From positions 78,811 to 142,810 of the forward strand of contig SVQZ01000002.1 in the NCBI GenBank assembly GCA_015065105.1: 64,000 nt of DNA, written 5' to 3'. This document shows positions 4,121-49,922 of this stretch, one piece after another. Under the pieces are notes generated by a model. The model did no database searches, was not told the origin of the DNA, and saw only the letters and a list, made by a program, of their open reading frames with translations. This DNA comes from Oscillospiraceae bacterium (lineage in GTDB: Bacteria > Bacillota > Clostridia > Oscillospirales > CAG-272). Made by a program: the position numbers and the translations under genes. Every line of letters starts with the position of its first letter. Position 1 is the first letter of the stretch.

Positions 4121-5256
4121 TATATCTTTTCTCCGAGTATATTTATATATTTATTATAGAATGAGGTATAATATCCGCCGTCAAGAGCGTCTCTTATCTT
4201 CTGCATGAGATCGTTATAAAAATAAAGGTTATGAAGAACGCAGAGACGGGGGCCGAGTACTTCTCTTGCCTTGAAGAGGTGGCGTATATATGCCTTGGAA
4301 TAATGCTGACAGGCAGGACATTTACAGTCGGGATCGATGGGAGTGTCGTCAAGAAGATATTTTTCGTTCATAACGTTGATCTTGCCCTTCCAGGTGAAGA
4401 GATTACCGTGGCGCGCGTTACGGCTGGGCATAACGCAGTCAAAGAAATCAACGCCTCTGTAAACCGCCTCAAGGATATTGCAGGGTGTTCCTACACCCAT
4501 GAGATATCTGGGCTTATCGGCGGGCATATGAGGCTCTACCGCATCGATGATACGGTACATTTCCTCTGCCTCCTCGCCAACGGCAAGACCGCCGATAGCG
4601 TAACCGTCAAGATCGAGCTTGGCTATCTCCTGCATATGGGAGATTCGAAGATCCTCGTATGTGCCTCCCTGGTTTATACCGAAGAGCATCTGCTCCTTGT
4701 TGATGGTAGAGGGAAGGGGATTGAGTCTTGCCATTTCCGCCTTGCATCTGTGAAGCCAGCGGGTGGTTCGTTCACATGATTTTTTAACGTAATCGTAGGG
4801 GGCGGGATTTTCTACGCATTCGTCGAATGCCATTGCGATGGTGGATGCAAGATTAGACTGAATCTGCATACTTTCCTCAGGTCCCATGAATATCTTTTTG
4901 CCGTCCATATGGGACGCAAAATACACACCCTCCTCCTTTATTCGGCGGAGCTTTGCAAGGGAATATACCTGAAATCCGCCGCTGTCTGTAAGTACAGGCT
5001 TATCCCAGTTAAAAAATTTGTGGATGCCGCCGAGGTCATGTATAAGACCGTCGCCGGGACGGATATGAAGATGGTAGGTGTTGGAGAGCTCTACCTGACA
5101 GTTGATCTCGCGAAGATCCATTGTGGAAACTCCGCCCTTTATAGCGGCAGAAGTACCTACGTTCATGAATACGGGGGTCTGGATAGTGCCGTGAGGTGTT
5201 TCAAACTGACCTCTGCGTGCCCTTCCTTCCTGTGTTAATAATGTGAATTTTCCCAT
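4120..5256 (-). CDS. tgt: Queuine tRNA-ribosyltransferase (tRNA-guanine transglycosylase)
   Basis: 'TPVFMNVGT', 'LTDSGGFQV', and the 'CxCxxC...H' zinc site (CKCPACQHYSKAYIRHL). Confidence 0.95.
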   Translation of the reverse strand: MGKFTLLTQEGRARRGQFETPHGTIQTPVFMNVGTSAAIKGGVSTMDLREINCQVELSNTYHLHIRPGDGLIHDLGGIHKFFNWDKPVLTDSGGFQVYSLAKLRRIKEEGVYFASHMDGKKIFMGPEESMQIQSNLASTIAMAFDECVENPAPYDYVKKSCERTTRWLHRCKAEMARLNPLPSTINKEQMLFGINQGGTYEDLRISHMQEIAKLDLDGYAIGGLAVGEEAEEMYRIIDAVEPHMPADKPRYLMGVGTPCNILEAVYRGVDFFDCVMPSRNARHGNLFTWKGKINVMNEKYLLDDTPIDPDCKCPACQHYSKAYIRHLFKAREVLGPRLCVLHNLYFYNDLMQKIRDALDGGYYTSFYNKYINILGEKI

Positions 5257-20183: not shown

Positions 20184-20762
20184 AAATTAAAGTATTAAAG
20201 ACAAAGTGCGACAGGAGTTTTAAATGATGGTGAAACCGAAGATGCAGCGGCCATGTATCAATTCCTATAAGGTAATGTGCGACGTAACACAAATAGTGAA
20301 ACAAAAAGTAAAGCTCCAAAGCGTTCCGTATCAATTCCTATAAGGTAATGTGCGACATAATTCTCCTATTTGGAATAGGATTAGCTATTTACAAACTAAT
20401 AAGGTTCTTTATAAACCTTGTTAGAAAAACTCGGGATGATCTTGTATCAATTCCTATAAGGTAATGTGCGACATACTTGTGCAATATGTGGTAAGAAATT
20501 TAATATACGTATCAATTCCTATAAGGTAAGGTGCGACGAATATTGTGTATATAATGTTCGGTGTATCTATATGCATGATAGTATCAATTCCTATAAGGTA
20601 ATGTGCGACGCTGATGAAGTCAGAACCTATAATCCGTACCAGAAAAGCTTTGATAAGCTTAAGTATAAATTCCTATAAGGTAATGTGCGACAGGACACAC
20701 TCACATGGCAAAGGCAAACAAAGAACTCTCTACGTATAAATTCCTATAAGGTAATGTGCGAC
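20184..20762 (-). CRISPR. CRISPR array 1 (8 repeats, the distal one degenerate), transcribed leftward from the leader at 20763-20854
   Basis: 29-nt repeats (+ strand GTATCAATTCCTATAAGGTAATGTGCGAC) at 20255, 20328, 20444, 20509, 20581, 20663 and 20734, plus a degenerate remnant ending ...AAAGTGCGAC at 20212. Spacers are 42, 44, 87, 36, 43, 53 and 42 nt. In crRNA sense the repeat is GTCGCACATTACCTTATAGGAATTGATAC, which ends like the ATTGAAAC-type 8-nt tag. Confidence 0.95.
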
Positions 20763-20854
20763 AACTGTAAAATCAAGGGTTGTCAATAGTATTATACAAT
20801 AAACACTGTAAAAAGTCAAGGAAAAGTCGGTCGGTCAAATTTAGAATATTCAAT
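20763..20854 (-). promoter_or_regulatory. CRISPR leader 1 with promoter (TTGACT-17-TATAAT on the - strand; + strand coordinates 20814-20819 and 20791-20796)
   Basis: 92 nt, reverse-complement identical to 21572-21663 except for 2 mismatches. It abuts the first repeat. Confidence 0.8.
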
Positions 20855-20867
20855 TGGTAAATAAAAA

Positions 20868-21092
20868 ATGTTAAATGAAATTCTTGATTTCACGTATTCG
20901 GATGACAAAGGGGTGTATTTGAACTATAACGGAAAAAGGATGTTTGTATCGGCATTTTATAAAAAACTTTATGAAAAAATAACCGTATCAGACAAAACGC
21001 TCAGTTATATGGAGCTTATACGTATAGAAATACAGAAGCTTATCGAATATATAAATAACGGTACGGCATATATACCATATAAGTACTATTGA
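20868..21092 (+). pseudogene. cas1: cas1 remnant (C-terminal ~74 codons only)
   Basis: 'GKRMFVSAFYKKLYEKI...SYMELIRIEIQKLIEYINNGTAYIPYKYY' resembles the Cas1 C-terminal helices. The frame is closed by a stop 2 codons upstream, and leader 1 occupies the place of the missing ~250 codons. cas2 follows 15 nt downstream. Confidence 0.65.
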
Positions 21093-21107
21093 ACGGGAGG
21101 CAAAAGA

Positions 21108-21368
21108 ATGTATATTATTTTAACGTATGATATAGCCACCGTTAAAATATCCAAGGTAAGAAAGGTTTGTAAAAAATATCTTCGTCATATTCAAAAGTCT
21201 GTTTTTGAAGGGAGCTTAACCTGCTCTCAACTGAAGCTGTTGAAAAAGGAGCTTAAGCCTTTAATTTCTCCGCAAACGGACAGCATAATAATATATGAAT
21301 TTGAAAATTTAAAATTCACTTCTAAAGAACAGCTGGGAGTATCCAACGAATACACGAATGTTATCTGA
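21108..21368 (+). CDS. cas2: CRISPR-associated endoribonuclease Cas2
   Basis: 86 aa, 'MYIILTYDI...KVRKVCKKYLRHIQKSVFEG' ferredoxin-fold pattern. Confidence 0.85.
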   Translation: MYIILTYDIATVKISKVRKVCKKYLRHIQKSVFEGSLTCSQLKLLKKELKPLISPQTDSIIIYEFENLKFTSKEQLGVSNEYTNVI

Positions 21369-21571
21369 GTGGGGTAAAGCCTTATCTCTGTTTGAATATT
21401 CAGACTCTTCTATGCTTAACAATCTGTAAATCCGGAAAAAGTCGGTCGATCGGTTTGCCGAGTATTTATAAGGGTAAGTTAGCTCCCAAAGGGTGATATT
21501 TCTGCTAAAAAACGGTTTTTACACAGAAAAAGTCGGTCGGTCATAAAGCCTTTTTTTATATCGGCTTAAAT

Positions 21572-21663
21572 ATTGAATATTCTAAATTTGACTGACCGAC
21601 TTTTCCTTGACTTTTTACAGTGTTTATTGTATAATACTATCGACAACCCTTGATTTTACAGTT
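21572..21663 (+). promoter_or_regulatory. CRISPR leader 2 with promoter (TTGACT 21607-21612, 17 nt, TATAAT 21630-21635)
   Basis: Inverted copy of leader 1, ending directly at the first repeat of array 2. Confidence 0.8.
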
Positions 21664-22242
21664 GTCTCACCTTACCTTATAGGAATTGATACTTTTTACA
21701 ATGTGCGGCTTAGTGTGCTATATTTTTTATTATTGTCTCACCTTACCTTATAGGAATTGATACTTGTCCAATCTTTCATCTTGCATGCCTCCAAAATAAT
21801 TTATTCGTCGCACATTACCTTATAGGAATTGATACCCTTTCGCTTTGCAGCTTCAAGGATAGAATCTTCATCAAGTCGCACCTTACCTTATAGGAATTGA
21901 TACGCGATCCTTATTTTCTTTATCTTCATGATGTATTTACCTCCTCTTAAAAGATACGTCGCACATTACCTTATAGGAATTGATACAAAAGAAATCCAGG
22001 TTTTCTACTCTCACGAAGTGAACGGATTTCAGAAATAGTTACTTCGTGCGTTGCACCTTACCTTATAGGAATTGATACAACATTGGCCATACAATAGATC
22101 TAGAAGCATTTGACGGTGCATAGTATGCAATGTCGCACATTACCTTATAGGAATTGATACTTTATAGAGGAAAAATGGAAAACTGGCAAGGAAAAAACCT
22201 ATTAGATATAGCGTCGCACATTACCTTATAGGAATTGATTAC
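21664..22242 (+). CRISPR. CRISPR array 2 (8 repeats), transcribed rightward
   Basis: Repeats at 21664, 21735, 21807, 21875, 21958, 22050, 22132 and 22213; the last carries a 1-nt insertion (GATTAC). Consensus is GTCGCACATTACCTTATAGGAATTGATAC, with GTCTCACC / GTCGCACC / GTTGCACC variants. Spacers are 42, 43, 39, 54, 63, 53 and 52 nt. Confidence 0.95.
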
Positions 22243-22321: not shown

Positions 22322-23032
22322 ATGCAGATAAAGCTATTTTTTAAAACCGAGCCGGGCTTTTCTCTGCCCTTTAATTACAATCATCAGCTTCAAAGCGGTA
22401 TATACAGAAAGCTCGGTGAGATAGGGAGATCGGATTTTATTCATGACGTCGGATATACAAGCAAGCACTTCAAGGGCTTTGTTTTCGGCTCGGTCAACGG
22501 CGATCTTTCGGTGAAAGAAAAAAAGCTGGTGTTTGGAAAATCCTTATTCTTTGAGCTCAGATCCTTTTCCTATGAATTTTGCGATGATATTCAGAGAAGC
22601 TTTGAGAGGTTTCCGTATATGAAGCTTTTTGATACCGAGCTCGGTTTATCGGATATGAAGCTCGGCAATGTTCATATCAACAGCGAAAGGGCGGAATTTT
22701 GCGCGCAGACTCCGGTGATAGTGCATAAAAGAACACAGGACGGTAAGACTGTATATTATTCGCCGGATGATGAAGAGTTTCTGCCCGGTTTAAAGGAGAA
22801 TTTTATAAAGAAGTATTCTGCTCTTACAGGTAAAGAGGCTTCCGGAATATCTATCGATACCTTCGGTAATTACAAGAAAACGGTAACGAATTATAAGGGA
22901 ACCTGGATAAATGCCTACAAAACGAATTTTATTATATCGGGGGATAGCGAGAGCCTTGAATTTATTTATAATACGGGGCTCGGTGCAAAAAACTCCCAGG
23001 GCTTCGGAATGCTTGATCTCTTGCAGTCTTAA
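22322..23032 (+). CDS. cas6: CRISPR repeat endoribonuclease Cas6
   Basis: 236 aa, 'PFNYNHQLQSGIYRKL' and a C-terminal G-rich loop 'GLGAKNSQGFGML'. Confidence 0.85.
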   Translation: MQIKLFFKTEPGFSLPFNYNHQLQSGIYRKLGEIGRSDFIHDVGYTSKHFKGFVFGSVNGDLSVKEKKLVFGKSLFFELRSFSYEFCDDIQRSFERFPYMKLFDTELGLSDMKLGNVHINSERAEFCAQTPVIVHKRTQDGKTVYYSPDDEEFLPGLKENFIKKYSALTGKEASGISIDTFGNYKKTVTNYKGTWINAYKTNFIISGDSESLEFIYNTGLGAKNSQGFGMLDLLQS

Positions 23033-24496: not shown

Positions 24497-24976
24497 ATGC
24501 ATCTGTTTGCAGAGATAAAAAACGATTACGTAACGGGCAGTGAAAGCTACAAGGCTCTTGCAAAAAAATATTCGGCGGATTATTCCGAGATCCTTTTGAC
24601 TGCAAGGGAAGAGGGTTGGGCGGAACAGAGAAGGGAATTCAGAAATTCTGCACAGTATTGTGAAAAAAGGCTTGAGGAGGTAACGCTTAAGCTTATCCGA
24701 AAGCTTGAAAGGGCAATTGACGAGCTTGACAGCTACGTTACAACGGTGCATATCAAGGAAAAGAATACCGAATATGACGAGGAAGGCAAAAAGGCTGTTT
24801 TTGAGAGGGTAGTGGAGAGTGAAGAGATATGCATCAAGAAGGGTCTTATAGACAGAACTGCCATAAAGCAGCTGGCGGCAACGATCAAGGAGCTCAAAGG
24901 CAGGGATATGCAGGAGGAGGAAGCCGAGGGAGTTGAGGTGATACTCAGCGATGAGGCGAGGGAGCTTGCAAAATGA
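24497..24976 (+). CDS. Phage terminase small subunit
   Basis: 'MHLFAEIKNDYVTGSESYKALAKKYS...' HTH-like N-terminus and an acidic C-terminus. Stop overlaps the terL start. The ATG at 24497 is preceded by GAGGTGG. Confidence 0.6.
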   Translation: MHLFAEIKNDYVTGSESYKALAKKYSADYSEILLTAREEGWAEQRREFRNSAQYCEKRLEEVTLKLIRKLERAIDELDSYVTTVHIKEKNTEYDEEGKKAVFERVVESEEICIKKGLIDRTAIKQLAATIKELKGRDMQEEEAEGVEVILSDEARELAK

Positions 24977-26355
24977 AAAGACATATTATCGGAAAACCGA
25001 ATGAAAAGCAGGTCTTATTTATGCAGGATTCTCACAGGTATATAGCCTTCGGCGGAGCAAGAGGCGGAGGTAAGAGCTGGGCGGTCAGAGCCAAAGCAAA
25101 GCTTCTTTGCTTTAACTATCCCGGAATAAGGATACTTATTGTAAGGCGGACCTATCCCGAGCTTTACAACAACCATATCAACATACTCCGCCGTGAGCTT
25201 GCGGGCTCGGTAAAATATAATGACAAGGAAAAGCTTATGACATTTGAGAATTCAAGTACCATAAGCTTTTCTTACTGTGCACATGATAAGGATCTTGACA
25301 GACTGCAGGGTGTGGAATACGATGTGATTTTTCTTGACGAGGCTACACAGCTTTCCGAGTTTCAGATGAGAGCTATATGTGCCTGCGTACGTGCGGTGAA
25401 CGATTACCCTAAACGTGTATATTACACCTGCAATCCGGGAGGAAAGGGTCATTCTTATATAAAGAGGCTCTTTATAGACCGTAGATATGAGGACGGGGAA
25501 AATCCGAAGGATTACTTCTTTATTCAGTCCCTTGTTACCGATAATACGGCTCTTATGGATGCCGACCCCGATTACATAAAGCAGCTTGACGCTCTTCCCG
25601 CAAAGCTTAAGGACGCATGGAGATACGGCGACTGGAATATTTTTGAGGGTCAGTTCTTTGAGGATTTCAGAGATGATCCCGAACATTATGACGACCGCCG
25701 TTATACCCACGTTATACCGGCCTTTGAAGTCCCTTTTGGGTGGAATATCTACCGTTCCTACGACTTCGGCTATAATAAGCCCTTTTCATGTGCATGGTGG
25801 GCTGTTGATTATGACGGTATTATCTATCGTATCCTTGAGCTTTACGGCTGTACCAAGAATCCAAATGAGGGTGTTAAATGGACTCCCGACCGACAGTTTG
25901 AAGAGATCGCAAGGGTGGAAAGTGAGCATCCCTGGCTTAAGGGCAAGCAGATACAGGGTGTTGCCGATCCTTCTATATGGGATACATCGCGGGGAGAGAG
26001 CGTAGCTGATACCGCTGCCCGTTACGGAATCTATTTTACCCCGGGAGATAACAAGCGGATAGCCGGTTGGATGCAGATGCATTACCGTCTTTCCTTTGAC
26101 AGCCGGGGTTATCCCATGATGTATATCTTTGATAACTGTAAGGCGTTTATCAGAACTCTGCCCCTGCTGACCTTCAGCGAGGTTAATCCCGAGGATCTTG
26201 ATTCCTCGCTGGAGGACCATTGTGCAGATGAGGCCCGTTATTTCTGTATGATGAGACCTATCTCTCCCACCGCTTTGCACACGGCATCAAAGCCCTGTGA
26301 CGACCCCTTAAATTTGATGAATGCGGCCGCAAAAAACAAAATGAGGAGGATATGA
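24973..26355 (+). CDS. Phage terminase large subunit
   Basis: Walker A 'GGARGGGKSWA', Walker B 'VIFLDEATQ', and C-terminal nuclease acidic residues. Confidence 0.85.
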   Translation: MKRHIIGKPNEKQVLFMQDSHRYIAFGGARGGGKSWAVRAKAKLLCFNYPGIRILIVRRTYPELYNNHINILRRELAGSVKYNDKEKLMTFENSSTISFSYCAHDKDLDRLQGVEYDVIFLDEATQLSEFQMRAICACVRAVNDYPKRVYYTCNPGGKGHSYIKRLFIDRRYEDGENPKDYFFIQSLVTDNTALMDADPDYIKQLDALPAKLKDAWRYGDWNIFEGQFFEDFRDDPEHYDDRRYTHVIPAFEVPFGWNIYRSYDFGYNKPFSCAWWAVDYDGIIYRILELYGCTKNPNEGVKWTPDRQFEEIARVESEHPWLKGKQIQGVADPSIWDTSRGESVADTAARYGIYFTPGDNKRIAGWMQMHYRLSFDSRGYPMMYIFDNCKAFIRTLPLLTFSEVNPEDLDSSLEDHCADEARYFCMMRPISPTALHTASKPCDDPLNLMNAAAKNKMRRI

Positions 26356-28097
26356 TGTTTAAATTTAAAAAAGAAGAAAAAACAGACCTGAAGCTACCTA
26401 TAGGGGAAGAGGAAATTCTTCTTGCCCGGCAGACTCTTCAGAAATACAAGAGAGATAAAACAAATCTTGAGCAAAAGATAATTTCAAACGAGGATTGGTG
26501 GAAGCTTCGTCATTGGGAAACGATGCGTAAGGATAAAAATGAATACAGTCCTGCCTCTGCCTGGCTCTGGAACGTCATCGTTTCGAAGCACGCAGAAACG
26601 ATGGATTCCTATCCCGAGCCCATAATACTACCCCGTATGCCTGATGACAGCGAGGAGGCAAAAAAGCTTTCTTCTGTAGTTCCTCTTATACTTGAGCAAA
26701 ACGATTTTGAAAGCGTGTATTCAGACGTTCAATGGTATAAGCTCAAGCAGGGAACGGGAGCCTACGGTATATTCTGGGACGTTGGTAAAAACGGAGGACT
26801 TGGCGATATCTCTATCAAAAAGGTAGATATTCTTTCTCTTTTCTGGGAGGGAGGAGTAAATGATATCCAGGATTCAAAGAATTTGTTTTATGTAAATCTC
26901 TGCGATAACGATACCCTTGTTTCTCTTTATCCCGAGCTTTCCGGGAGAATGGGCTCGGATGCAACGGAGATCGCAAAATACCGTTATGACGATAACGTTG
27001 ACGTGAGCGGAAAAAGTGCTGTGGTCGATTGGTATTATAAGAAGACGGTAAATCAGAGAACGGTGCTTCATTACTGTAAATTCGTGGGAGATACGCTTTT
27101 GTTTTCAACAGAGAATCTTCCGGATCAGTATCCGAACGGTTGGTATGACCACGGCCTTTATCCCTTTGTTTTCGATCCCTTATTTTCTATTGAGGGTACC
27201 CCCTGCGGTTACGGGTATATAGACATTGCAAAGGATACCCAGATGCAGATAGACCTCCTTAGCCGTTCTATTGTAAACAATGCCATGCTTGCCTCCAAGC
27301 CGAGATATTTTATAAGAGGCGACGGTAGTGTAAACGAGGAGGAGTTTGCCGATTGGACGAAGGATTTTGTTCATACCAACGGTAATCTTGCAAAGGACAG
27401 CATTCTTCAGATAGAGGTCAACCCCATCAACAGTATTTACGTTAATATACTTAACCACAAGATAGACGAGATAAAGGAGACTCTCGGAAACCGTGATTCT
27501 GCCAACGGCGGTATAAACAGCGGTGTTACTGCCGCCTCTGCCATTGCCGCATTGCAGGAGGCGGGAAGTAAGCTTTCGCGAGATTCCACAAGAGCGGCAT
27601 ACCGTGCCTACCGTCTCGTTATCATACAATGCGTTGAGCTTATAAGACAGTTCTACGATTTTCCCAGATTTTTCAGAATCATAGGAAAAACGGGAGAAAA
27701 TGAATTTACCTCCTATTCAAATAAGGGTATAACCATCAGGAGCCAGGGCGAGAGCTTCGGTGTGGATATGGGTATGCGTCTCCCCTTGTTTGATATTGAA
27801 ATAAACGCACAAAAGTGTAATCCTTATTCGAAAATGTCTCAAAATGAGCTTGCTCTTCAGTTCTACAATCTGGGCTTTTTCGAGGTGGACAGAGCTCAAA
27901 GCGCTTTAGCTTGTCTTGAAATGATGGATTTTGCCCATAAGGACAGCGTTGTTGCCCGTATAACAGGAAATTATGAAAAAAAGAGAAAAAGTGAGCTTTC
28001 AAGGGCTGTGTTACCTGCCAAAAGGGTGACTCTTCCGAAGGAAGCAAGCGCTGTAGAACGGGCAAGAGCGGTGAGTGCAGAGGGGGTGATACCGTGA
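26352..28097 (+). CDS. Phage portal protein
   Basis: 581 aa directly after terL with overlapping start and stop; size and position are typical of a portal. Confidence 0.7.
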   Translation: MMFKFKKEEKTDLKLPIGEEEILLARQTLQKYKRDKTNLEQKIISNEDWWKLRHWETMRKDKNEYSPASAWLWNVIVSKHAETMDSYPEPIILPRMPDDSEEAKKLSSVVPLILEQNDFESVYSDVQWYKLKQGTGAYGIFWDVGKNGGLGDISIKKVDILSLFWEGGVNDIQDSKNLFYVNLCDNDTLVSLYPELSGRMGSDATEIAKYRYDDNVDVSGKSAVVDWYYKKTVNQRTVLHYCKFVGDTLLFSTENLPDQYPNGWYDHGLYPFVFDPLFSIEGTPCGYGYIDIAKDTQMQIDLLSRSIVNNAMLASKPRYFIRGDGSVNEEEFADWTKDFVHTNGNLAKDSILQIEVNPINSIYVNILNHKIDEIKETLGNRDSANGGINSGVTAASAIAALQEAGSKLSRDSTRAAYRAYRLVIIQCVELIRQFYDFPRFFRIIGKTGENEFTSYSNKGITIRSQGESFGVDMGMRLPLFDIEINAQKCNPYSKMSQNELALQFYNLGFFEVDRAQSALACLEMMDFAHKDSVVARITGNYEKKRKSELSRAVLPAKRVTLPKEASAVERARAVSAEGVIP

Positions 28098-28420
28098 TAA
28101 TTGCAGAGTATGACAAGAGCCGTATAGAGTTAAAGCTTTCGGGTCATGCAAATTATGCCCGCAAGGGAGAGGATATAGTTTGTGCCGCGGTATCAGCCTT
28201 GGCTTTTACCTATGCGGAGCATAACGGAGGTTATACCGAGAATAACGGTGCTATGGTGATCAAGGCAGTAAGCAGAGATCCTGTAGAGGAAAGGATCCTT
28301 GACGTTATAATAGGCGGATTAAGGATGATTTCAAGAGAGTATCCCGACAATCTTTTGATCAAAGAGAATATACAGAGACACGCAGGAGAGACTGCAGAAA
28401 GGAAAGAGCATGAAATATAG
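28094..28420 (+). CDS. Prp-like cysteine protease (ribosomal-processing protease family, phage type)
   Basis: 'SGHANYARKGEDIVCAAVSAL' contains the His/Cys dyad pattern of Prp. It sits between the portal and scaffold genes. Confidence 0.7.
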   Translation: MIIAEYDKSRIELKLSGHANYARKGEDIVCAAVSALAFTYAEHNGGYTENNGAMVIKAVSRDPVEERILDVIIGGLRMISREYPDNLLIKENIQRHAGETAERKEHEI

Positions 28421-29183
28421 ATTCAGGCTTCAGTATTTCGCCGAGGAGGCGGAGAAAAATGAAAATACGGGCGGTAAACCTACCCTTGACGCCGAAGGGG
28501 AAGCAGTGAACATAAAAACTGATTTTGACGAGCTTATACGCGGGGAATACCGCGATGAATACAGCAAAAGGGTTGAGGATATCGTCAAAAACAGACTTAA
28601 GGATCACTCGGAATTAAAGAAAAATCTCGGAGATATCACCTCTGCTCTTACAGAATTAAAAAACGAGCTCGGAATAGAGGCAGAAGGGGTTGACGGGATA
28701 ATCGCAGAGCTTAAGGAGCATATCCGAAAGGAAAAGGGCGACGTTGATGCGAAGGGTGCAGATACCCGTGAAAAAAAGGAGAACGCTCCCCCCTTGGTTA
28801 ATTCGGAGAATGCCGGAAACACTATGGCAAAGCTTTTAAAGGGCTGTGATGAAACAAAGGAATTGTATCCGCAGTTTGATATTAAGAAGGAATTTTCCAA
28901 CCCTGATTTCAGAAGAATACTCAAGCTTACCGATAACGATCCCAAAAAGGCCTTTGAGATACTGCATCATGATGAGATAATAGCCGGCGTTATAAAGGAT
29001 ACGGCAAGAATGACCGAAGAACGTCTGGCGGGCAGTATAGCATCAAGGGCGGCAAGACCGGCGGAGGGCGCTCAAAGCGCCGCAAGTGCCGTTTATATAA
29101 ACCGCGATCCTAAGTCCTTGTCCAAAGCGGACAGGGCGGATATTAAAAAAAGAGTACGCAGAGGCGAAAGAATAGTCTGGTAG
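28410..29183 (+). CDS. Phage scaffolding protein
   Basis: Charged, coiled-coil-rich 257-aa protein immediately upstream of the capsid gene. Confidence 0.55.
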   Translation: MKYRFRLQYFAEEAEKNENTGGKPTLDAEGEAVNIKTDFDELIRGEYRDEYSKRVEDIVKNRLKDHSELKKNLGDITSALTELKNELGIEAEGVDGIIAELKEHIRKEKGDVDAKGADTREKKENAPPLVNSENAGNTMAKLLKGCDETKELYPQFDIKKEFSNPDFRRILKLTDNDPKKAFEILHHDEIIAGVIKDTARMTEERLAGSIASRAARPAEGAQSAASAVYINRDPKSLSKADRADIKKRVRRGERIVW

Positions 29184-29209
29184 CTCTGCGAAAAAGAAAG
29201 GAAAAAGAT

Positions 29210-30454
29210 ATGGAATTAGTTTTTGATATTCAGGCATTTGCCAATGCAAACGTACAGACAACAGCTGCAAACGAATCGGGAAACGATTTAAGTCCCGCAA
29301 TGAAGGAGTATTACGATACTGAGCTTCTTGAAAACGCAAAGGAAGAGCTGTTTTTTAATCAGTTCGGTAAGGTACAGTCTCTTCCCGAGGGTAACGGAAA
29401 GAAGGTAGAGTGGAGAAAGTTCGACACCTTCGGCAAGGCTACAACACCTCTCGAGGAAGGTGTTACTCCCGACGGTAATACAATGAACATGAAGAGTGTT
29501 GAGGCTCAGGTAGAGCAGTACGGCGATTATACCACCGTATCCGATATGCTCGATCTTACCGCCGTTGACGACGTTATCCTCTCCTGCACCGAGGAGCACG
29601 GAACCCAGGCCGGCCTTACCCTTGATACTCTTACAAGAAATGAGATATGCAAGGGCACTAACGTTTCCTTTGCGCCCAGAAACGTTGACGGTGTTGAGGT
29701 GCCCGTCAGCCTCCGTTATGAGCTTGATTCAAGCGCAAAGCTTACCTCCACTGTTGTAAACAAGGCAGTTACCAAGCTTAAGAAGAATAAGACACCCAAG
29801 ATAAACGGCAAGTATATCGCTATTATCCATCCTTCTGTTTCCGAGGATCTGCGCGAGTCCGAGGGCTGGATAGAAGCTCACAAGTACGCTGCTGTTACCG
29901 AGATCTTCAACGGCGAGATAGGTGAGCTTCACGGTGTAAGATTTATCGAATCCAATGAGGCCCCCATATTCAAGGGTGGGGATCTTATTCCCGGTGTTAC
30001 AAGAAATCTCACCGTTTCCTCCGATGTATCTTCTTCCTATACTATCACCGTAGGTACTATCGAGGGTCTTAGCTCTGTAGTAAACAGATACGTGCTTATC
30101 AACGGCGAAAAATACAAGGTTACCGGCTTCAACGGTACAAACAAGATAATTCTTGATGCAGCGGTTACCCTTAAGTCGGGTGATAACATTTATCCCGGTG
30201 AAGGCGGTGCTAAGGGCTGTGCTGTTTACGGTTGTATCTTCTTTGGCAGAGACGCTTACGGAAGAGTTGAACTTTCCGGCGGAGCCATGGAGATGATCGT
30301 TAAGTCAAAGGGCTCCGCAGGAACAGCAGACCCCTTGAATCAGCGTTCTACCGTTGGTTGGAAGGCGGCACACGCAGCGGCTATTCTTTACGAGGAAAGA
30401 CTTCTTCGCGTTGAATGCGGTTCATCCTACAGCGAAACCGACGAGGCTAACTAA
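29210..30454 (+). CDS. Phage major capsid protein (HK97-fold type)
   Basis: 414 aa, 'FNQFGKVQSLPEGNGKKVEWRKF...EGVTP', and its position after the scaffold gene. Strong RBS. Confidence 0.75.
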   Translation: MELVFDIQAFANANVQTTAANESGNDLSPAMKEYYDTELLENAKEELFFNQFGKVQSLPEGNGKKVEWRKFDTFGKATTPLEEGVTPDGNTMNMKSVEAQVEQYGDYTTVSDMLDLTAVDDVILSCTEEHGTQAGLTLDTLTRNEICKGTNVSFAPRNVDGVEVPVSLRYELDSSAKLTSTVVNKAVTKLKKNKTPKINGKYIAIIHPSVSEDLRESEGWIEAHKYAAVTEIFNGEIGELHGVRFIESNEAPIFKGGDLIPGVTRNLTVSSDVSSSYTITVGTIEGLSSVVNRYVLINGEKYKVTGFNGTNKIILDAAVTLKSGDNIYPGEGGAKGCAVYGCIFFGRDAYGRVELSGGAMEMIVKSKGSAGTADPLNQRSTVGWKAAHAAAILYEERLLRVECGSSYSETDEAN

Positions 30455-40314: not shown

Positions 40315-40370
40315 ACCATACAAAGTCTTGAGTTTAATAACAAAAAGCAGAGAACGGTCGTTCTCTGCTT

Positions 40371-40644
40371 CAGCTTGTCGATAAACTTATCGACAAGCTG
40401 TCAGGCTTCGAAAAAGGAAGCGTAGGTTTTCGTGAAAAGGGGACGTAGGCGTACTATGTACGGTAGAGCCCCTTTTCACGGAAAAGTGTGAAATAGCGGT
40501 GTGAACTCGACGTTTACACCGCTATTGAATAGTTATTCAACTTTATCAGGAGTTGTGAAGCTTATTTTCTAATTAATTTATTGGGCGTCTTAAACTTAAA
40601 AAAAGAATTTCTTCACACGTCCGACCGACTTTTTCGACAGTCTG
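40371..40644 (+). mobile_element. 274-bp non-coding TIR-bounded element (MITE-like), copy 1, flanked by a duplicated 26-bp terminator hairpin
   Basis: Termini are CAGCTTGTCGATAAACTT... and ...AAAAAGTCGGTCGG-type, reading CAGACTGTCGAAAAAGTC on the reverse complement (imperfect TIR CAGnnTGTCGAnAAAnT). Flanks AAGCAGAGAACGGTCGTTCTCTGCTT (40345-40370) and AAGCAGAGAACAGTCGTTCTCTGCTT (40645-40670) are direct repeats. Internal hairpins have 11-12-bp stems. There is no ORF. Confidence 0.8.
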
Positions 40645-40675
40645 AAGCAGAGAACAGTCGTTCTCTGCTTTAATA

Positions 40676-48755: not shown

Positions 48756-48788
48756 TATAAAAGGAGTTATATTTAAAGTATAACTCCT

Positions 48789-49062
48789 CAGACTGTCGAA
48801 AAAGTCGGTCGGACGTGTGAAGAAATTCTTTTTTTAAGTTTAAGACGCCCAATAAATTAATTAGAAAACAAGCTTCACAACTCCTGATAAAGTTGAATAA
48901 CTATTCAATAGCGGTGTAAACGTCGAGTTCACACCGCTATTTCACACTTTTCCGTGAAAAGGGGCTCTACCGTACATAGTACGCCTACGTCCCCTTTTCA
49001 CGAAAACCTACGCTTCCTTTTTCGAAGCCTGACAGCTTGTCGATAAGTTTATCGACAAGCTG
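48789..49062 (-). mobile_element. 274-bp non-coding TIR-bounded element, copy 2 (inverted relative to copy 1), flanked by a duplicated 27-bp hairpin
   Basis: Its reverse complement matches 40371-40644 with one mismatch in my by-eye alignment (A/G in GTGAAGCTT[A/G]TTTTC). Flanks AGGAGTTATATTTAAAGTATAACTCCT occur at 48762-48788 and 49063-49089. The right copy contains the last codons and the stop of the aminotransferase gene. Confidence 0.8.
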
Positions 49063-49073
49063 AGGAGTTATAT

Positions 49074-49922
49074 TTAAAGTATAACTCCTGTTTCATCATA
49101 GATCTTTTTAAGGAAAAGCTCTTGGATCTTATTGGCGGTTGCCCGGTCCTTTCCGCCCACAGCCTTGCCGTCTATATCATAAACGAGGATAACGTTCTTT
49201 GTGGTGGAGCAGAGCAGGATTTCATCTGCATCCAATACCTCGTTTACGGTAAATACTCTTTGCTCTGTCAGAATACCGTTTTTATCACAAAGCTCCTTGA
49301 TTATCGCTCTTGTTATGCCGGGAAGGATAAGCTCGTCAAGAGGGGGCATTATGACCTTGCCGTTCTTGATTATGAGAATGCTTGAATGAGCTGCCTCGGT
49401 TACGCGCTCCCCTCTATGCATAAGTGCTTCGGTATAGCCCTCCTCGGTTGCCTTTTGTGCGGCAAAAACGTTGGGCAGAAGATTTACGGTTTTGATATTA
49501 CAGTATTTAAATCGCATATCCTCCATAGAAAGAAGGGATGCACGCTTGTCCTTTGCGGGAAGCGGGCAGCTTTTTACGAACATAAGAAGATTTGGCTTTA
49601 CCGATTCGGGAAATTCATGCTTGCGGGGAGCGTTTCCGCGGGAAACCTGTATATAGAGCATGGTTGTGCCCATATCCGCCATAGAGAGGAGCTTGTCTAT
49701 CTCTGTCTTAAGTGCTTCTCTGTCCATATTAAAGCTGATGCTTGTCAGCTCGCAGCTTCGGTAGAGTCTGTCAAGATGCATATCAAGGGTGAAGGGCTTG
49801 CGGTCAAGAACGAGAATTGCGTCATATACCGCATCCCCGAAATATATTGAGCGCTCCGACATCGGAACGGTCATTGTGTCAAAATCTCCGAAGGTCCCAT
49901 TAAAATAAGCATTATTTTTCAT
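49074..49922 (-). CDS. Class IV aminotransferase (D-amino-acid / branched-chain type)
   Basis: 282 aa, 'RSIYFGDAVYDAI', 'NIKTVNLLPNV', fold-type IV pattern. Confidence 0.7.
   Translation of the reverse strand: MKNNAYFNGTFGDFDTMTVPMSERSIYFGDAVYDAILVLDRKPFTLDMHLDRLYRSCELTSISFNMDREALKTEIDKLLSMADMGTTMLYIQVSRGNAPRKHEFPESVKPNLLMFVKSCPLPAKDKRASLLSMEDMRFKYCNIKTVNLLPNVFAAQKATEEGYTEALMHRGERVTEAAHSSILIIKNGKVIMPPLDELILPGITRAIIKELCDKNGILTEQRVFTVNEVLDADEILLCSTTKNVILVYDIDGKAVGGKDRATANKIQELFLKKIYDETGVIL

Follow-up and report, generated by a model that had tools for sequence, protein, structure and literature searches.

The 64,000-nucleotide stretch of an Oscillospiraceae genome analysed here (the window) contains a short non-coding repeat whose two copies each lie between two direct copies of a complete hairpin, and the hairpins at the two sites are unrelated in sequence. 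This arrangement raises the question of what kind of element duplicates an entire palindrome upon insertion, and which enzyme moves it. A repeat search paired both copies as inverted arms of 276 nt, and reading of the two loci delimited a 274-bp element at positions 40371–40644 on the forward strand (copy 1) and 48789–49062 on the reverse strand (copy 2). The copies were 99.6% identical, corresponding to one mismatch (A/G near 40563), in full agreement with the original prediction of two inverted copies that differ at a single position. The longest open reading frame (ORF) within the element comprised 30 aa, for which the look-up for carrier contigs returned no record; the predicted lack of a transposase-sized ORF was thus borne out. 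The outer ends form imperfect terminal inverted repeats, as had been proposed, and match at 13 of 18 positions. The left terminus is indeed a palindrome, although its size had been given differently, as a perfect 12-bp stem: it spans 30 bp (40371–40400, +) with 14-nt arms and a 2-nt centre, and its predicted fold consists of a 13-bp stem and a 4-nt loop. Two end-like motifs, CAGCTTGTCGATAA and TTATCGACAAGCTG, are arranged head to head in this palindrome, and a third, CAGGCTTCGAAAAAGG, follows at 40402–40417 (+; element positions 32–47) and, as an inverted repeat, matches the right end best. The right terminal repeat, a family-wide 16-mer with the sequence CTTTTTCGACAGTCTG, occupies 40629–40644 (+), and an 18-mer end was confined to copies of the element (4 matches versus 0.1 expected). 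The further long internal hairpins of the prediction were real as well: H1 (40427–40484, +) has a conserved apical part (GGCGTAC..GTACG) and a basal stem that covaries among variants of the element, H2 (40492–40526, +) is formed by AATAGCGGTGT...ACACCGCTATT, and the RNA fold of the whole element had a z-score of –9.0 against shuffled sequences. An Rfam scan of the region yielded only sub-threshold chance matches (E 0.15–0.9), and no match to plasmids or phages was obtained with blastn. Two scans of viral contigs were discarded, since their matches were conserved coding sequence or chance. With terminal inverted repeats, a small size and no transposase ORF, the sequence has the features of a MITE, which supports its earlier description as a non-coding mobile element bounded by terminal inverted repeats.

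Copy 1 is framed by two 26-bp hairpins at 40345–40370 and 40645–40670 with the sequence AAGCAGAGAAC[G/A]GTCGTTCTCTGCTT, the left and the right one differing at a single loop base (G versus A). The left hairpin constitutes the bidirectional terminator that separates DUF2284 (+) from SLH (–), and behind the right one comes the T-rich tail that belonged to the original terminator. The 27-bp hairpins on either side of copy 2, AGGAGTTATATTTAAAGTATAACTCCT, are identical to each other. In the proximal one (49063–49089), the loop includes the stop codon at which the class IV aminotransferase gene (49074–49922, –) ends. The distal one (48762–48788) continues into a T-rich tail, beyond which lies a perfect TTGACA-17-TATAAT promoter match upstream of the next gene (409 aa, with RuvB_N, AAA and MgsA_C domains). 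At both window sites, the T-rich tail follows the distal hairpin copy only.

To collect further copies, a left-end 20-mer was searched in 185,579 species-representative genomes. Out of 11 loci, two were real relatives. Locus L004 (Oscillospiraceae SIG480) carries a copy 84% identical to the window element, flanked by a duplicated 28-bp hairpin, AAGTCCTCAGGCATC[C/T]GCCTGAGGACTT. Locus L002 (Clostridia bacterium RGIG6372) holds a 251-bp variant whose ends are unchanged and whose interior has diverged; a 26-bp hairpin is duplicated at its flanks, AGAGGCTGTCCG[G/A]TCGGACAGCCTCT. The 30-bp left palindrome is identical in both variants. A full-length or autonomous element with this palindrome was not found by the 20-mer in the same 185,579 genomes, and a left-end 26-mer gave no matches in metagenome contigs. 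About 100 bp from the SIG480 copy, a tandem array of 183-bp units with G+C-rich hairpins (GCCCCCAAAAACTTTGTTTTCGGGGG...) was observed (L004 4495–5116).

Among contigs of the source organism, both window insertions were present in every sample, and contig ends often fell within the element, a usual effect of repeats present in several copies. One chimeric contig pointed to a third site in the source organism: the element was joined, on one side only, to yet another hairpin, (T)ACGGGCGGATATGAAATCCGCCCGT(A), and the right flank of copy 2 was thereby connected (L012, 19009–19310) to the hairpin TACGGGCGGATATGAAATCCGCCCGTA and to a different neighbouring gene (HATPase_c_5). The join itself arose by chimeric assembly across the repeat or by recombination between copies. 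In total, five independent sites each adjoined a different hairpin. Four of them had both flanks, with distinct duplications of 26, 27, 28 and 26 bp at unrelated positions, and the third site of the source organism was one-sided.

Neither window site yielded an exact empty allele, as all contigs with identical flanking proteins carried the insertions. The syntenic intergenic region (DUF2284/SLH or DUF2284/aminotransferase), however, contained a single terminator hairpin in two related species. Together with the several unrelated duplicated hairpins, this one-hairpin configuration indicates that the flanks are target-site duplications. The same conclusion had been drawn in the original prediction, which took the hairpins neither for element sequence nor for att cores, and it now extends to 15 or more independent family insertions with unrelated hairpins. 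When the flanks were tabulated, the presence of a hairpin held at every independent site recovered, and a single hairpin common to all copies, which would have spoken for a part of the element, was not seen.

The right-end 16-mer is shared by all three variants and marks a large family in public metagenomes. A metagenome scan with this 16-mer returned at least 120 matches, which we examined for a perfect stem of at least 7 bp starting 0–3 nt outside the end, with 24000 random positions of the same loci as background. Such a hairpin was present at the end in 49 of the 120 matches listed, compared to 169 of the 24000 random positions (0.7%). Most family members among the matches listed were MITEs of about 170–280 bp, and at least 12 further complete MITEs (176–255 bp) had duplicated hairpin flanks. 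Across the family, duplications ranged from about 18 to 30 bp, in keeping with the size of the respective hairpin. Left-end palindromes analogous to that of the window element, with a different sequence, occurred in other MITE subfamilies (L052, L062). Two loci, L128 and L131, contained 66–67-bp derivatives of a related MITE that consist of little beyond the two terminal repeats and are still flanked by hairpins, and 221–223-bp elements of the same related group were seen at L138 and L145. Hairpin-duplicating IS1182 elements and MITEs are thereby documented as widespread in bacteria of the gut, the rumen and digesters.

The assignment to IS1182 came from relatives that encode a transposase. 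At L096 (660–2208), a 1549-bp element with the ends CAGGCTGTCGAAAAAGTG and CAGACTGTCGAAAAAGTG is flanked by a 21-bp hairpin duplication and carries one ORF of 481 aa. The product scored 387.5 bits on the NCBIfam model NF033551 ‘IS1182 family transposase’ (cut-off 270), has the Pfam domains DUF772, DDE_Tnp_1 and DDE_Tnp_1_6, and belongs to a group of more than 7000 homologues. A second element of 1525 bp, found at L169 in a public MAG between rpiB and rpmB, shows a 24-bp hairpin duplication; its transposase is 65% identical to that of L096 and has the same three Pfam domains according to precomputed annotation, the NCBIfam score being available for L096 only. The right end of the MITE is identical to the right end of L096 over 17 nt and to the left end of L169 (CAGACTGTCGAAAAAGTC) over 18 nt, so that both elements share the termini CAGrCTGTCGAAAAAGT with the MITE. 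In a third group of insertion sequences (L161–L168), hairpins were present at every flank, and one and the same hairpin was found to the left of the element on one contig and to the right on another. The termini of the lineage can be written as 5′-CAGnyTGTCGAwAAA...CGACAGTCTG-3′, and the autonomous elements possess a hairpin just inside their left end as well. The L096 element is apparently intragenic, as the flanking ORFs (307–678 and 2243–2569) resemble, by eye in their translations, a split tyrosine-recombinase (integrase) gene. Since this insertion lies in an apparent gene, at a palindrome of 19–21 bp, hairpin targeting may reach beyond terminators.

A tblastn search of the 64-kb window detected no IS1182 transposase. 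Because termini and hairpin duplication are common to the MITE and to the transposase-encoding elements L096 and L169, we infer that the 274-bp element is an IS1182-family MITE mobilised in trans; very probably, it is moved by a DDE transposase of this family whose gene resides in another part of the genome or on an incoming element. Action of an unknown transposase from elsewhere had been the second choice of the original prediction and turned out to be the correct reading, and autonomous relatives with matching termini, of the kind it had suggested looking for, were found in public metagenome data, none of them traceable to the source genome. Whole-hairpin duplication would appear to be a trait within the IS1182 family, judging from the loci analysed here and from the direct repeats of 0–60 bp that ISfinder is said to give for IS1182. 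Palindromic duplications of 26–28 bp can be regarded as the normal signature of one IS1182-family lineage, and there was no evidence for a new integrase.

The behaviour of this lineage has both a precedent and a counterpart in the literature. IS1272 and TnSha1, two members of the IS1182 family, insert into hairpins or terminators without specificity for primary sequence, and the hairpin is lost in the process (PMC4923244, PMC5678879); for the targeting of palindromes by this family, both papers refer to Siguier et al. 2015. The MITE resembles them in its choice of target and through the IS1182 transposase of its full-length relatives, and the extra left-end repeat of IS1272L (PMC5678879) is mirrored by the three left-end motifs described above. 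In contrast to IS1272 and TnSha1, which delete or replace the hairpin and leave no duplication, the present lineage duplicates it as a whole; the termini also differ, and the element of the window is non-coding. MITEPye1 of Paracoccus yeei, an IS1182-derived MITE, is similarly non-autonomous, with IS1182-like terminal repeats, no ORF, an intergenic location and a long stem-loop fold, but is flanked by ordinary 4-bp direct repeats instead of the 26–28-bp hairpins seen here (PMC11578231), while the present lineage comes from gut-associated Clostridia. Outside the family, IS1630 (IS30 family) produces 16–26-bp duplications of terminator-like inverted repeats (PMC3317919), and its targeting of inverted repeats is also apparent from the title of Calcutt 1999, cited in PMC7648426. 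ISMhom-1 behaves like IS1630 (PMC3317919, PMC7648426). The view that such long palindromic duplications lack a precedent was therefore overstated: IS1182 members were known to target hairpins or terminators (PMC4923244, PMC5678879), and IS1630 duplicates them.

A model for how a hairpin could be duplicated has been put forward for the IS1182 family: the transposon attacks the feet of a cruciform, and with the 5′ feet as the points of attack, duplication of the complete stem-loop is predicted (PMC5678879, Fig. 13, pathway b). We consider a mechanism of this type, acting at the feet of a cruciform, to be reasonably likely for the present lineage. The transposase would recognise no target sequence but a perfect palindrome of limited length, as a rule an intrinsic terminator (7–14-bp stem, 2–7-nt loop). 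The two 3′-OH ends of the element would then be joined to opposite strands at the feet of the palindrome, or at most 1–2 bp away, most plausibly while the palindrome is extruded as a cruciform and both feet are brought together. Repair synthesis over the two single-stranded hairpin arms would leave a complete hairpin on each side, and the copying of both arms would make the target-site duplication equal to the palindrome (18–30 bp) and variable from site to site. In this way, the hairpin beside each flanking gene would be regenerated, along with any stop codon within it, so that the insertion would leave coding sequence undamaged. As the proximal hairpin has no T-tail, transcription probably runs through the element as a 3′-UTR extension, with termination at the distal hairpin. 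One and the same transposase family can delete its target hairpin (IS1272) or duplicate it (present lineage), and this contrast makes it possible to compare the polarity of the cut sites at the hairpin feet. Matched ends of insertion sequences and MITEs, together with dozens of target hairpins, provide natural substrates for the reading of DNA shape by a DDE transposase. For annotation, these elements explain tandem terminators, 3′-UTR extensions and contig breaks in metagenome assemblies.

The internal hairpins deserve separate consideration, because a simple model of a trans-mobilised MITE does not require conserved and covarying structures in its interior. The check for covariation that had been suggested was carried out on single-sequence folds with manual comparison, since MAFFT misaligned the L002 variant, and it indicated that H1 and H2 covary among the three variants. 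The basal stem of H1 has an entirely different sequence in L002 with the pairing kept, and H2 shows two compensatory pairs when compared with L004; a terminator-like hairpin replaces H2 in L002. In five of six H1/H2 hairpins, the forward strand folded better than the complement by 4–9 kcal/mol, pointing to G-U pairs. These observations speak for an alternative in which the element is still an IS1182-type MITE, but its spread and conservation reflect a function of its own, either as a structured RNA of the forward strand (H1/H2) or as DNA hairpins engaged in a structure-for-structure transposition. Fold z-scores of –9 and –12 and the recurrence of left-end palindromes with a different sequence in other subfamilies point in the same direction. 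However, the comparison comprises three diverged variants only, no Rfam match was obtained, and the hairpin at the left end of the autonomous insertion sequences suggests that the structures may be inherited as 5′-UTR or read-through-blocking features. We therefore regard a function of its own as unlikely. H1 and H2 may be 5′-UTR structures inherited from the parent insertion sequence, for which the left-end hairpin of the autonomous elements speaks, or they may be functional themselves.

An origin of the MITE from an IS1630-type element of the IS30 family, which would target and duplicate terminator-like inverted repeats, was our initial lead; the insertion signature is identical (16–26 bp for IS1630, and likewise for ISMhom-1, with variable hairpin sequences). 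It was dropped when the transposase-bearing relatives proved to be of the IS1182 type: elements with the termini of the MITE encode DUF772/DDE_Tnp_1_6 transposases, and no IS30 element with these ends was present among the transposase-bearing elements recovered. IS1630 and ISMhom-1 moreover differ in their IS30-type transposase and their termini and have been described from mycoplasmas, which suggests convergent behaviour rather than membership. An IS30 parent is thus very improbable.

Even less probable is the mechanism that the original prediction had offered first, namely that Cas1–Cas2, a casposase or another cruciform-recognising integrase duplicates the palindrome in the manner of a CRISPR repeat. 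The geometry is formally the same, as casposons and Cas1–Cas2 also attack both sides of a segment in a staggered manner and duplicate it by fill-in, and the window does contain a CRISPR locus. Two divergent arrays (20255–20762 and 21664–22241) share the 29-nt repeat GTCGCACATTACCTTATAGGAATTGATAC and have spacers of irregular length (36–87 nt and 39–63 nt). They flank a centre (20764–21667) that comprises inverted ‘leaders’ of ~95 bp, a cas1 remnant (20868–21093) encoding the 74-aa C-terminal part of a type I-B Cas1, and an intact cas2 (21108–21368), and a cas6 gene follows at 22322–23032. This layout looks like an inverted duplication of leader and array that truncated cas1. Directly downstream of cas6, phage-like genes for a PBSX-type terminase large subunit, a Prp-like protease and an N4-gp56-type major capsid protein were observed (24973–30454), and contigs of relatives showed the same phage-like block upstream.

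A possible link between the locus and the MITE was a 15-nt motif, GAAAAAGTCGGTCGG, which is a subterminal part of the MITE right end. In addition to the MITE copies (40621–40635 and 48798–48812), it occurs four times around cas2 and the leaders (20820–20834, 21435–21449, 21526–21540 and 21592–21606), that is, six matches versus 0.18 expected. The count was significant, yet the similarity between MITE and leader ended at the motif, and the local alignment score of 31 lay within the upper tail of shuffled sequences (95th percentile 26, maximum 36), barely above chance. The link was therefore rejected; the motif could be a decayed end of a related transposon, a shared protein-binding site or chance. 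Further data spoke against a Cas1-type enzyme. Each autonomous relative carries a single IS1182 transposase gene and no Cas1 homologue, and the cas1 of the window is a mere fragment. No fixed length or sequence context of the duplicated segment was found, as the duplication follows each palindrome (18–30 bp), and the family is present in many metagenomes with no visible link to CRISPR. While Cas1–Cas2 acts on a fixed repeat beside a leader, any palindrome serves here, in combination with IS1182-type termini and an IS1182-type partner enzyme. The inference of a Cas1-like integrase is accordingly not supported. There is next to no chance, finally, that the flanking hairpins are att- or dif-like sites of a site-specific recombinase or a part of the element: integrated Xer-dependent elements are flanked by two dif-like sites, and the palindromes (26–28 bp, with 11–12-bp arms and a 2–6-nt centre) do resemble the 11-6-11 layout of dif, but a site-specific recombinase needs conserved arms, whereas the hairpins are unrelated between sites with no conserved recombination site at every junction, the site in related species contains one ordinary terminator, and the element possesses conserved termini of its own, inward of the hairpins.

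Given an IS1182-type MITE with target-site duplications, a last point concerns differences within the flanking hairpin pairs. Among the four copies with both flanks, three show a single transition between one hairpin and the other, at the palindrome centre (40356/40656 in the window, ~5203–5217 and 5506–5520 in L004, and the flanks of L002). In the wider family, where such differences were seen at L046, L048, L093, L131, L138 and L145, they again cluster in the loops, with loops of unequal length at the L046 insertion and an inverted loop at L048. Differences at the hairpin centre are too frequent for the age of the insertions, and error-prone or template-switching repair across hairpin-forming gaps would fit them. 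A more far-reaching possibility, which we consider doubtful, is that secondary structure is used on both partners: the terminal palindrome and H1/H2 would recognise or exchange with the target hairpin in a cruciform or single-stranded state, or would encode a small RNA for transposition, and the differences at the hairpin centre would be the footprint of template-switch repair. One insertion, represented by several loci (L131, L138 and L145), showed compensatory differences in the stem, with GCCGC..GCGGC in one hairpin copy and GCCAC..GTGGC in the other.
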